Origin: an uncultured Gemmatimonadaceae bacterium
GTDB lineage: Bacteria; Gemmatimonadota; Gemmatimonadetes; Gemmatimonadales; Gemmatimonadaceae
Length of the DNA: 64,000 bases
NCBI GenBank assembly: GCA_963817955.1
Contig: CAWFQK010000002.1
Location: 320,001 to 384,000, forward strand
Reading direction: 5' to 3'
Below are positions 54,460 through 54,629 of this stretch, in pieces. Both the position numbers and the translations under genes were made by a program. Under the pieces are notes generated by a model that had not been told where the DNA came from, did not search any database, and was given only the letters and a program-made list of their open reading frames with translations. Positions within the stretch are counted from its first letter, which is position 1. The number at the start of each line of letters is the position of its first letter.

Positions 54460-54502
54460 AAAAACAAAAAAGCCCGGTCCTCTCAGAGAGAGAGGACCGG
54501 GC
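54460..54502 (-). terminator. Attenuator terminator (T2) in the metY leader
   Basis: mRNA GCCCGGUCCUCUC-UCUCU-GAGAGGACCGGGC-UUUUUUGUUUUU, 13-bp perfect stem, about 30 nt before the metY ATG. Confidence 0.9.
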
Positions 54503-54527
54503 CGGTATGCGAGCTCGTGTTGGCTCG

Positions 54528-54629
54528 CTAGTCGCCTGCGCGCGTGCGCGGCACCCGTCCGTCTCTCCCATAAGGAGGAACGCACATGAGGCACATACAC
54601 ATGGGCATCGCGAGCGGCGTGAGGCGCAT
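54528..54629 (-). CDS. Putative Met/Cys-rich leader peptide (33 aa) of the metY-metX attenuator
   Basis: MRLTPLAMPMCMCLMCVPPYGRDGRVPRTRAGD*; 7 of codons 8-16 are Met or Cys; an antiterminator-complementary segment follows. Confidence 0.8.
   Translation of the reverse strand: MRLTPLAMPMCMCLMCVPPYGRDGRVPRTRAGD

Follow-up and report, generated by a model that had tools for sequence, protein, structure and literature searches.

Putative serial attenuators ahead of metY-metX in a Gemmatimonadaceae genome: a SAM-II-type riboswitch and a Met/Cys leader peptide

Transcription of the metY-metX operon of an uncultured Gemmatimonadaceae bacterium probably has to pass two successive attenuators, a SAM-II-type riboswitch followed by a leader peptide rich in Met and Cys codons. 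The leader is placed second because a putative SAM-II aptamer with its own terminator lies upstream of it. The operon occupies the minus strand of the 64,000-nucleotide stretch of DNA that was analysed (the window), and computational analysis of the nucleotide sequence shows which parts make up the proposed system, in what order they stand, how they complement each other and how far they are conserved. An earlier sequence-only reading of this stretch had proposed a ribosome-mediated attenuator that reads Met-tRNA and Cys-tRNA, and the conserved leaders described below support that view, with amendments. We also lean towards regarding the Met/Cys-codon leaders of metY as a class of attenuator that has no entry in Rfam 15 and is uncatalogued, is present in at least four phyla and stands repeatedly in series with one of two unrelated riboswitch classes, SAM-II (upstream, in Gemmatimonadota) or SAM-I (downstream, in Ignavibacteria), as a composite two-input gate.

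The operon and its upstream SAM-II-type element

The genes, the promoter and the first of the two candidate attenuators are as follows.

52111..53109, minus strand: metX-like homoserine O-acyltransferase (best NCBIfam match TIGR01392 MetX; Pfam Abhydrolase_1)
53106..54431, minus strand: metY, O-acetylhomoserine/O-acetylserine (OAH/OAS) sulfhydrylase (Pfam Cys_Met_Meta_PP, E = 5.7e-143)
54660..54691, minus strand: terminator T1, putative riboswitch expression platform (hairpin 54691-54666, then U7)
54684..54754, minus strand: candidate SAM-II-type (SAM_alpha) riboswitch aptamer (RF00521 and RF01726 matches)
54766..54795, minus strand: predicted sigma-70-type promoter, TTGACA-18 nt-TATACT (11/12 consensus matches)

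The metY product scores 641.6 bits against TIGR01326 (cut-off 495) and is, by this profile, a member of the bifunctional OAH/OAS sulfhydrylase subfamily, which offers a reason for sensing both Met and Cys. The metX-like protein scores 275 bits against TIGR01392, under the cut-off of 500, and its start and the metY stop share 4 nt. The metY ATG at 54431 is preceded by a Shine-Dalgarno sequence (AGGAG, 54445-54441). The promoter is the sole promoter-like site in 54000-55200 (shuffle mean 0.2), and transcription would start near 54759.

The aptamer matches RF00521 with 33.1 bits (E = 1.1e-5) and RF01726 with 30.7 bits, below the gathering scores of 36 and 44, respectively. At the equivalent position, related metY loci score 52.7 bits (L004, above gathering) and 30.8 bits (L001). 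When the three are aligned (A1), the window and L004 share a P1 stem of CGUGG/CCACG, for which L001 has CGAGG/CCUCG through a compensatory U-A to A-U change; the aptamer loop and the 3' strand (AAACAA..GCUAAA) are invariant. Both the P1 stem and the 3' strand expected of the SAM-II pseudoknot/triplex are thus found in the window aptamer. The candidate element lies directly after the strong promoter, upstream of the leader ORF and before metY-metX, and the sequence-only reading had overlooked both this aptamer and T1, with which the operon would be no exception to SAM-riboswitch control. A putative SAM-II element ahead of metY-metX is a position that would fit the control of Met/SAM genes.

The T1 hairpin has a predicted energy of -17.9 kcal/mol, and its inner part was picked up by a terminator scan. 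The aptamer loop (GCCGCC) can pair with the 5' arm of this hairpin (GGCGGC), as can the corresponding positions in L001 (GCCGCG/CGCGGC) and L004; the shuffle p values for T1 in the window, L001 and L004 are 0.09, 0.20 and 0.004. A permissive Rfam scan of 54380-54960 returned no T-box match at E values up to 10. The weak matches it gave over the second terminator (sX11, anti-hemB, Gl_U1, mir-128 and others; 12-23 bits, where the gathering scores are 46-245) were set aside as terminator look-alikes.

The Met/Cys leader and its terminator

The second candidate attenuator lies between T1 and metY and consists of the following parts.

54528..54629, minus strand: leader ORF, 33 codons + TAG, no Shine-Dalgarno (ATG 54629-54627, stop TAG 54530-54528)
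54582..54608, minus strand: putative regulatory codon run M-P-M-C-M-C-L-M-C (4 Met + 3 Cys in 9 codons)
54573..54594, minus strand: region 1, 5' arm of a predicted 1:2 'protector' hairpin (MFE folds)
54548..54570, minus strand: region 2, putative anti-terminator strand inside the ORF (duplex with T2 5' arm)
54460..54503, minus strand: terminator T2 (regions 3 and 4), 14-pair stem 54503-54471 + U-rich tail to 54460

The leader ORF, which sits between the promoter and the metY ATG and begins about 130 nt into the predicted transcript, was first described in the sequence-only reading, together with the codon run, a complementary segment 12 nt past the last Cys codon, the lack of a clear Shine-Dalgarno sequence and a perfect 13-bp, U-tailed terminator; all of these were recovered at 54629-54460, apart from the pair count of the terminator. 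The run (ATG CCC ATG TGT ATG TGC CTC ATG TGC) is the sole stop-free nine-codon stretch with at least seven Met or Cys codons in the six frames of the window. Among 100 dinucleotide-preserving shuffles, none reached seven of nine and five reached at least six of nine.

The leader ATG forms an anti-Shine-Dalgarno duplex of +0.4 kcal/mol, against -7.4 kcal/mol for metY. This is general, as none of 11 leaders examined across metY loci has a Shine-Dalgarno sequence before its ATG (duplexes of -3.8 kcal/mol or weaker), whereas metY has one in 10 of the same 11 loci (-5.7 to -8.5 kcal/mol). Translation of the leader is therefore an assumption of the model. At one locus (L033), the leader ATG lies 7 nt after a TATACT box, and this leader may be leaderless. 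In the ORF listing, the frame of the window leader extends upstream to an ATG at 54707 (59 aa), inside the aptamer; this start was rejected, as the extension is unconserved in relatives.

T2 is a canonical intrinsic terminator, with 10 G-C pairs, a 5-nt loop and the tail UUUUUGUUUUU in the terminator scan, a hairpin energy of -30.6 kcal/mol, and 28 nt between its tail and the metY ATG. The scan counts 14 pairs in the stem, in place of the 13 noted earlier. By our own reading, these are 13 Watson-Crick pairs and a terminal G-U.

Region 1 overlaps the run in its final four codons and takes in the CUCC that follows directly, and an inner CUCC-loop-GGAG hairpin appears in the RNAalifold consensus of four Gemmatimonadota sequences (alignment A2, columns 56-59 with 65-68). 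The purine-rich region 2 forms a predicted duplex of -32.3 kcal/mol with the 5' arm of T2 (RNAduplex; mean of 500 shuffles -19.5, p = 0.002). In A2, all 12 consensus pairs of T2 are kept, three with substitutions in both partners, and the 2:3 duplexes of the four sequences (including L001, L003 and L006) range from -31 to -35 kcal/mol despite differing arms. The covarying stems that the sequence-only reading had suggested looking for are thus seen in part: region 2 changes along with the terminator arm, and the column-wise signal is modest for these four sequences (MAFFT A2), with 74.6% of cells paired against 44-68% when the strands are slid, a value matched or exceeded in 31 of 500 shuffles. 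Since the 2:3 registers vary among sequences, per-sequence duplex tests were relied on instead of columns.

Conservation among metY loci

Conservation was assessed in 80 loci (the window and 79 others; 467,816 bases in total) out of at least 595 confirmed metY loci. Within 450 nt upstream of metY, ORFs with at least four Met or Cys codons in nine were found in the sense direction at 8 of 80 loci, against 1 of 80 in antisense. Depending on the ORF and start-codon definition, these ORF scans left out L005 and L008, or L005 and L060; L008 and L060 were recovered by a six-frame scan, and L005 was included from its sequence directly. The six-frame scan of all 80 loci gave 13 stretches with at least five Met or Cys codons in seven, of which seven, from six loci, fall in sense metY-operon leaders (binomial p = 1.6e-7, using our own estimate of 3.8% for the expectation).

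The full arrangement (a short ORF without a Shine-Dalgarno sequence, a Met/Cys cluster, an anti-terminator segment within the ORF and a hairpin before metY) occurs in all six Gemmatimonadota metY loci retrieved. It was found at five loci from other lineages, namely two from Ignavibacteria and single loci each from Acidobacteriota, Bacteroidota and Limnocylindria, the last of these weak. The comparison of related leaders proposed in the sequence-only reading is therefore borne out. Homologous Met/Cys runs are present in 11 other metY leaders, and the runs include MPMCMCLMC, MLMCMC, MMCC, MCCRMIPC, CRPCPC, CLCCMMMCM, CMGMMMCMMM, MAMCMRMC and MCPCMCC. Outside the run the peptide is unconserved, with unrelated flanking residues, and the Cys codons alternate between TGT and TGC. 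In the 12 leaders pooled, start codons excluded, Met accounts for 42 and Cys for 35 of 366 residues. That peptide and nucleotides vary while Met and Cys codons are kept suggests that selection acts on the codons.

These 12 loci were chosen by the ORF/anti-terminator/hairpin arrangement, and the counts that follow are to be read with that choice in mind. The leaders are 17-50 aa long (25-34 aa in 9 of 12), region 2 lies inside the ORF in all 12, and the distance from leader stop to hairpin 5' arm is 19-40 nt in 11 and 7-40 nt over the whole set. Complementarity between region 2 and the terminator arm beats shuffles (p < 0.05) in six of the 12 (Fisher combined p = 9.5e-9) and fails to do so in L002, L005 and L007 (p = 0.15-0.46). 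A hairpin is present in all 12, with poor U-tails in L001, L005, L008 and L033. Canonical U-tailed terminators together with a complementary region 2 are found in the window, L003, L006, L007, L016 and L060; L003, L006 and L007 have just two or three clustered Met/Cys codons. As L003 and L006 are near-duplicates, the independent loci number fewer than 12. One further candidate, a Lachnospiraceae locus (L062) with a Shine-Dalgarno-preceded ORF ending …RMCSRCRCCSVN, was dropped for want of a hairpin after the ORF; it could be a distinct Cys leader or a coincidence.

The order of SAM-II and then leader is shared by the window, L001 and L004. The reverse order, a leader followed by a SAM-I riboswitch, is found in the Ignavibacteria loci L016 (72.4 bits) and L008 (74.5 bits), and no riboswitch was detected in L002, L003, L006, L033 or L060.

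Proposed mechanism, alternatives and known systems

From these parts we infer that SAM binds the aptamer, that the ORF is translated without a Shine-Dalgarno sequence, that ribosomes stall in the run and that the RNA folds in a kinetic order. With SAM bound, the pseudoknot would hold the aptamer loop and T1 would form; with SAM absent, the loop would engage the 5' arm of T1, and RNA polymerase would read through. Past T1, the transcript would carry the leader ORF. When Met-tRNA or Cys-tRNA is low, a ribosome would stall in the run and occupy region 1; region 2 could then bind the 5' arm of T2, and metY would be transcribed. A ribosome that reaches the stop would allow the 1:2 hairpin to re-form behind it, after which 3:4 would pair and T2 would terminate transcription about 30 nt before metY. 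With two attenuators in series, expression would require low SAM plus low charging of the sulfur-amino-acid tRNAs. The sequence-only reading had the ribosome at the stop covering the anti-terminator. However, the stop lies 17 nt beyond region 2, and a ribosome there would leave most of region 2 uncovered; the replete state more probably arises when the 1:2 hairpin folds again once the ribosome has passed. A shortage of Met should, in addition, lower the supply of initiator Met-tRNA; the leader would then be translated less, which would tip the balance towards termination.

Folding both conformers, another check put forward in the sequence-only reading, gave no switch when ribosome footprints were imposed as hard constraints at equilibrium in 11 loci and five states. 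When the hairpin was complete, the T2-type terminator dominated in every state in 8 of the 11 loci, and when the RNA ended before region 4, 2:3 pairing averaged 0.65-0.75 in all five states, independently of the mask. The model therefore rests on co-transcriptional kinetics, and the equilibrium result is treated as uninformative on a mechanism of that kind.

Among the alternatives, it is possible, if unlikely, that the ORF is translated and regulatory yet senses general translation capacity, or acts through nascent-peptide arrest, Rho or mRNA stability, with no specific reading of Met-tRNA or Cys-tRNA. Conservation of the Met/Cys codons alone, and not of the peptide, argues against an arrest peptide, and six loci pair U-tailed terminators with a region 2; on the other side are the L005 and L008 hairpins without good U-tails and two published cases. 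The mycobacterial poly-Cys sORF sequesters a downstream Shine-Dalgarno sequence and so acts on translation, not termination (10.1101/834739), and the authors who described Streptomyces lividans metL found no typical Rho-independent terminator there (PMC8079986). A translational attenuator of the mycobacterial type was rejected for the window, where the ORF lies well within the transcript, Met and Cys are mixed, a canonical terminator follows and the metY Shine-Dalgarno sequence lies outside the paired segments.

An RNA-only or protein-mediated attenuator, in which the AUG/UGY array of an untranslated ORF binds a TRAP-like protein or a ligand, seems distinctly improbable. The missing Shine-Dalgarno sequences (0 of 11 leaders) would agree with it, as would the formation of either conformer at equilibrium without a ribosome and the AUG triplets of L004, which come in series of up to nine, 3 or 6 nt apart. 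TRAP sites are spaced triplets, which the L004 array resembles. However, the run shares its frame with an ATG in all 12 loci, and no stop interrupts this frame until it has passed region 2 and come within 7-40 nt of the hairpin; just 9 of 24 alternative frames are open over such a length. Nucleotides vary (ATGATGATG against ATGTGC) and TGT and TGC interchange while codon identity is kept, and the element occurs in five phyla with no common candidate factor. A factor bound to region 1 would, moreover, free the anti-terminator, the wrong sign for a Met-activated repressor.

It is very improbable that the ORF arose by chance and that T2 is a constitutive or fail-safe terminator or an insulator, with the riboswitch alone regulating. 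A SAM-II aptamer and a downstream intrinsic terminator do suffice elsewhere, at Sinorhizobium meliloti metZ, which resembles the present locus in these elements and in its sulfhydrylase gene (PMC9373788), and GC-rich DNA is rich in long open frames (the same 9 of 24). Against this, the seven-of-nine run was absent from all 100 shuffles, runs recur in 11 other leaders including the five in which no riboswitch was detected, and constitutive termination at a 14-bp stem 28 nt upstream of metY would shut the operon off. Motifs rich in Met and Cys bind soft metals. The least probable of these readings, a functional small peptide, perhaps metal- or redox-active, that is merely co-transcribed with metY, has a precedent in leader peptides with trans functions such as peTrpL (PMC7298713), but no residue outside the run is conserved, length and order vary, and all 12 ORFs overlap an anti-terminator followed by a hairpin and a Met-pathway operon (in loci picked by that arrangement, with the hairpin-less L062 dropped), features for which an independent peptide gene would have no use.

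The proposed two-attenuator system has relatives among known systems. The enterobacterial trp, his, leu, thr, pheA and ilv attenuators share with it a leader ORF of pathway codons, the 1:2/2:3/3:4 logic and a terminator before the first gene. The present leader differs in reading two amino acids, in lacking a Shine-Dalgarno sequence, in its serial riboswitch, in an ORF that spans region 2 and stops beyond it, and in its occurrence in Gemmatimonadota, Ignavibacteria, Acidobacteriota and Bacteroidota. Tandem riboswitches, such as SAM and AdoCbl on one leader, are likewise two serial attenuators that form a two-input gate; the second sensor here would be a translated leader peptide and not a second aptamer.

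Leader peptides with Met or mixed Met/Cys codons have been predicted in earlier publications (PMC3847290, PMC8079986). In Campylobacter jejuni, MetL is a predicted 20-aa leader with three Met codons and a ribosome-binding site before metBA (PMC3847290), for which a start-site peak is reported (PMC11955535). It resembles the present element in its Met codons, in a short RNA ending just past the stop and in preceding a sulfhydrylase/homoserine acyltransferase pair; it differs in its ribosome-binding site, and the available portion of the paper mentions neither Cys codons nor a riboswitch (PMC3847290). The S. lividans metL, ahead of metNIQ, is a predicted leader ending in a mixed run (…CMCRRMC…), and the statement in the sequence-only reading that no mixed Met/Cys example was known does not hold. 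This leader differs from the present one in being leaderless and ahead of a Met importer, and its authors described Met and Thr content, not Cys sensing (PMC8079986). In the mycobacterial poly-Cys sORFs (10.1101/834739) and the Rhodobacterales cysS uORFC-8-2 (PMC8632094), Cys codons of a uORF sense Cys-tRNA charging as proposed here, and the cysS motif likewise ends in a U-tailed terminator stem; these differ in that the accessible text of both describes Cys codons only, with no link to Met synthesis or a riboswitch. A literature search that covered few subscription journals found no metY leader peptide outside Campylobacter, none in Gemmatimonadota, and no riboswitch in series with a leader-peptide attenuator.

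Textbook accounts assign the control of Met biosynthesis to SAM riboswitches, T-boxes or repressors and describe attenuation by leader peptides as found chiefly in Proteobacteria and Actinobacteria. The loci described here suggest that attenuation through sulfur-amino-acid codons extends to the poorly studied Gemmatimonadota, Ignavibacteria, Acidobacteriota and Bacteroidota, that a single leader can read two tRNA pools, and that a leader combined with a riboswitch integrates the free SAM pool with translational demand on one RNA. A model of the leader element would improve the annotation of metY regulation in metagenome-assembled genomes. If the two-input class is real, a metabolite-sensing RNA and a ribosome sensing two tRNAs would jointly decide the assimilation of sulfur into homocysteine and cysteine.

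Upstream region of metY-metX and its Met/Cys codon run

The region upstream of the minus-strand metY-metX operon contains a leader ORF between two terminator hairpins, T1, which would belong to a SAM-II-type riboswitch, and T2, which precedes metY:

54903-54822, minus: tRNA-Leu(TAG) gene
54795-54766, minus: near-consensus sigma-70 promoter, TTGACA-18-TATACT
54754-54684, minus: SAM-II-type aptamer (Rfam scan, sub-threshold)
54691-54660, minus: T1, hairpin followed by U7
54629-54528, minus: leader ORF, 33 codons
54503-54460, minus: T2 terminator, 14 pairs, U-tailed
ATG at 54431, minus: metY, preceded by an AGGAG Shine-Dalgarno sequence
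start overlapping the metY stop by 4 nt, minus: MetX-like acyltransferase gene

The promoter is the sole promoter-like site within 54000-55200. The metY product matches Pfam Cys_Met_Meta_PP (5.7e-143) and TIGR01326, the OAH/OAS sulfhydrylase subfamily (641.6 bits, cut-off 495), and its closest relatives among the matches listed are all from Gemmatimonadota metagenome-assembled genomes (66-79% identity), a result that assigns the window to this phylum. The tRNA-Leu(TAG) gene is on the same strand, 27 nt 5' of the -35 box, with no terminator-like site reported between it and the promoter. At the other end, a gene for an HtrA/DegP-type serine protease with Trypsin_2 and PDZ domains (50409-51998, plus) is convergent with the end of the operon.

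The sequence-only reading had placed a Met/Cys-sensing leader-peptide attenuator here, and all of its coordinates hold on the minus strand. The codon run at 54608-54582 (ATG CCC ATG TGT ATG TGC CTC ATG TGC) is a genuine feature: no other stop-free stretch of nine codons, in any of the six frames of the 64-kb window, reaches 7 Met/Cys codons, and dinucleotide-preserving shuffles gave no 7-of-9 window (0/100) and a 6-of-9 window in 5/100. The purine-rich segment noted as complementary to the terminator 5' arm was also recovered. This segment, region 2 (54570-54548), begins 12 nt past the run and pairs with the T2 5' arm, region 3, at -32.3 kcal/mol (p = 0.002; mean -19.5 kcal/mol when the intervening sequence is shuffled), and the T2 hairpin alone (3:4) has -30.6 kcal/mol. 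In the minimum free energy fold, region 2 pairs backwards with region 1 (54594-54573), which spans the run's final four codons plus the CUCC after it, giving the classical 1:2 / 2:3 / 3:4 layout. The whole leader fold beats 100/100 shuffles (z = -4.3). Over the leader and T2, Rfam 15 gives sub-threshold matches only (12-23 bits), with no family at its gathering score.

Met/Cys leaders at other metY loci

GTDB genomes were scanned with MetY, and 80 loci were taken from at least 595 confirmed; the 450 nt before metY were compared for the window and 79 loci, with L069 left out for lack of upstream sequence. ORFs 8-90 codons long in which at least 4 of 9 consecutive codons are Met/Cys occur on the sense strand in 8/80 loci and on the antisense strand in 1/80. 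A six-frame scan that did not require an ORF (80 loci, 467,816 bases) yielded 13 windows in which 5 or more of 7 codons are Met/Cys; seven of these lie on the sense strand of a metY-operon leader, in the six loci L001, L004, L008, L016, L033 and L060 (binomial p 1.6e-7, with the expectation roughly estimated at 3.8%). Most of the other six are poly-Cys readings that occur outside metY leaders in GC-rich DNA.

Reading of the sequences gave 11 leaders besides that of the window. The comparison of related leaders that had been proposed thus finds a Met/Cys ORF in all six Gemmatimonadota loci listed and in five others.

Met/Cys runs of metY leaders
L001, Gemmatimonadota: …TLMLMCMCRLPYMG…
L002, Gemmatimonadota: …AAMMCCRPP…
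L003, Gemmatimonadota: …LNLMCRISPCG…
L004, Gemmatimonadota: …CAVMCMCMVMATMATTMTMTMT…
L005, Gemmatimonadota: MSCRRAMCCRMIPC…
L006, Gemmatimonadota: …LTLICRPCPCG…
L007, Limnocylindria (weak): …TSMCMPW…
L008, Ignavibacteria: …YSMCPCMCCSIPY…
L016, Ignavibacteria: …MCLCCMMMCMSS…
L033, Acidobacteriaceae: …PTMAMCMRMCSRP…
L060, Bacteroidota: MRCMGMMMCMMMAR…

Given that the runs recur while the peptides are unrelated outside them, that TGT and TGC are both used, and that the 12 leaders pooled without start codons contain 42/366 Met and 35/366 Cys, the pattern carries the signature expected if selection acts on codon identity and not on a peptide or nucleotide motif. A 28-codon ORF at a Lachnospiraceae metY locus (L062, 2314-2400) follows a Shine-Dalgarno sequence, ends …RMCSRCRCCSVN and has no hairpin downstream; it may represent a different type of translational Cys/Met leader or have arisen by chance.

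The leader ORFs are 17-50 aa long (25-34 aa in 9/12), and in all 12 the segment most complementary to the hairpin 5' arm lies within the ORF, ending 4-34 nt before the ORF end with the stop codon counted. The stop-to-arm distance is 19-40 nt in 11/12 and 7 nt in L008. The 2:3 complementarity exceeds 500 shuffles at p < 0.05 in six loci (window 0.002, L001 0.002, L006 0.004, L060 0.006, L016 0.02, L003 0.032), with L004 (0.058), L008 (0.06), L033 (0.07), L002 (0.15), L007 (0.34) and L005 (0.46) above that value; Fisher's combined p over the 12 loci is 9.5e-9, a figure that includes the near-duplicates L003 and L006 and a test floor of 0.002. Four alignable Gemmatimonadota leaders each form a 2:3 duplex of 18-21 pairs (-31 to -35 kcal/mol) from differing arm sequences. 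RNAalifold retains the T2 hairpin (12 pairs, 3 changed on both sides) and a small 1:2 hairpin, CUCC-loop-GGAG. In the 4-row alignment, 74.6% of the cells of the 2:3 helix are paired vs 44-68% when slid, only modestly above controls, and 31/500 shuffles are equally high.

SAM riboswitches in series with the leader

The sequence-only reading, which named SAM riboswitches among the usual controls of met genes, missed the element at 54754-54684. A permissive Rfam scan of 54380-54960 matches SAM_alpha there (RF00521, 33.1 bits, gathering 36, E = 1e-5) and likewise SAM-II long-loop (RF01726, 30.7 bits), both sub-threshold. The call is backed by elements in L004, in matching position and above threshold (52.7 bits), and in L001 (30.8 bits); by the alignment of the three aptamers, in which the loop and 3' strand are invariant and P1 has a compensatory change (CGUGG/CCACG vs CGAGG/CCUCG); and by the aptamer loop, GCCGCC, which is complementary to GGCGGC in the T1 5' arm. 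L001 (GCCGCG/CGCGGC) and L004 also pair at these positions (p = 0.09 in the window, 0.20 in L001, 0.004 in L004), and this pairing is a plausible candidate anti-terminator, withheld on SAM binding. S. meliloti metZ offers a precedent for a SAM-II riboswitch with a terminator (PMC9373788). The operon is therefore probably no exception to riboswitch control, and the leader ORF would be a second checkpoint downstream.

The leader frame is open 5' of its ATG through T1 to a further ATG within the conserved 3' strand of the aptamer (54528-54707, minus, 59 aa). This extension is absent from relatives and is thus probably a coincidence. In two relatives, short tandem-like repeats follow the SAM-II terminator and precede the leader ORF: about ten CCGCGAC-type units in L004 (~2010-2110) and three pyrimidine-rich CTCTGTTGTTT-type units in L001 (~2085-2130). 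These repeats could be spacers or ribosome-loading sites.

SAM-II precedes the leader in the window, L001 and L004, and L005 has a look-alike with no Rfam call at E up to 0.05. The two Ignavibacteria loci have the reverse order and another class, SAM-I. In L016, a promoter is followed by a Met/Cys uORF, a U-tailed hairpin and SAM-I (RF00162, 72.4 bits; uORF, hairpin and riboswitch at 1786-2170), which has a terminator of its own and precedes metY. L008 (65-460) has a Met/Cys uORF and hairpin followed by SAM-I (74.5 bits) with its own terminator, but its first hairpin has no U-tail, and its leader is separated from metY by other genes. No riboswitch was detected in the Rfam scan of five loci with leaders (L002, L003, L006, L033, L060), and SAM-I lies immediately 5' of metY, without a run of at least 4 of 9 Met/Cys, in eight (L014, L026, L029, L030, L043, L046, L063, L073). 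The permissive threshold was used for 11/80 loci and gathering scores only for the other 69, where a sub-threshold SAM-II like that of the window would escape.

Proposed mechanism and precedents

Backed by the comparative test, the feature is probably a Met/Cys leader-peptide attenuator. At low SAM, polymerase would pass T1 and a ribosome would load on the leader ORF. Scarcity of Met-tRNA or Cys-tRNA would stall this ribosome on the run, where it would mask region 1, leaving region 2 to pair with the emerging region 3, so that T2 would not form and metY-metX would be transcribed. With both tRNAs charged, the ribosome would reach the stop codon and let the local 1:2 hairpin re-form in its wake, 3:4 would form and transcription would end at ~54460. 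A terminating ribosome that covers the anti-terminator, as first proposed, finds no support, as the stop codon lies 17 nt beyond the end of region 2. Given that MetY falls in the bifunctional O-acetylhomoserine/O-acetylserine sulfhydrylase subfamily, sensing both sulfur amino acids would be rational.

Several observations count against this model. Translation of the leader ORF is an assumption: the lack of a clear Shine-Dalgarno sequence, already remarked on, extends to all leaders tested (0/11, vs 10/11 before metY), and the stretches upstream of leader ATGs are pyrimidine-rich. In the Acidobacteriaceae locus (L033, 2240-2265), 7 nt separate a TATACT box from the leader ATG downstream, so the mRNA may be leaderless. 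Starvation for Met would also be expected to lower the charging of initiator tRNA. Finally, of the two conformers, the 1:2 fold and the 2:3 duplex were both obtained, but equilibrium folding with ribosome masks produced no switch, and the model thus depends on co-transcriptional kinetics.

Published work contains several precedents. Upstream of C. jejuni metBA, a short RNA is predicted to encode MetL, a 20-aa peptide containing 3 Met codons (Porcelli et al. 2013, PMC3847290), for which a translation-start peak was later seen (Froschauer et al. 2025, PMC11955535). The sequence-only reading knew of no described mixed Met/Cys example, but one has been annotated: S. lividans metL before metNIQ (Droste et al. 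2021, PMC8079986) ends …CMCRRMC…, a run mixing Met and Cys, and its authors found no typical terminator. Cys-only uORFs affect translation in mycobacteria (10.1101/834739) and precede Rhodobacterales cysS (PMC8632094), and Seliverstov et al. 2005 (PMC1262725) report no RNA element for Actinobacteria Met operons. Full-text literature, with most subscription journals outside it, yielded no Gemmatimonadota case, no metY leader except in Campylobacter and no riboswitch in series with a leader peptide.

What is new here is the phyla, the proposed sensing of two codons upstream of metY in combination with a canonical terminator, and the leader without a Shine-Dalgarno sequence; the chief novelty is the recurrent series coupling of the putative leader with SAM riboswitches of two classes. 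As both orders occur and each module is found alone, leader and riboswitch behave as independent, combinable units. In the window, the SAM-II-type aptamer and U7 terminator on their own would yield a riboswitch sRNA of ~100 nt, comparable to RZ of S. meliloti.
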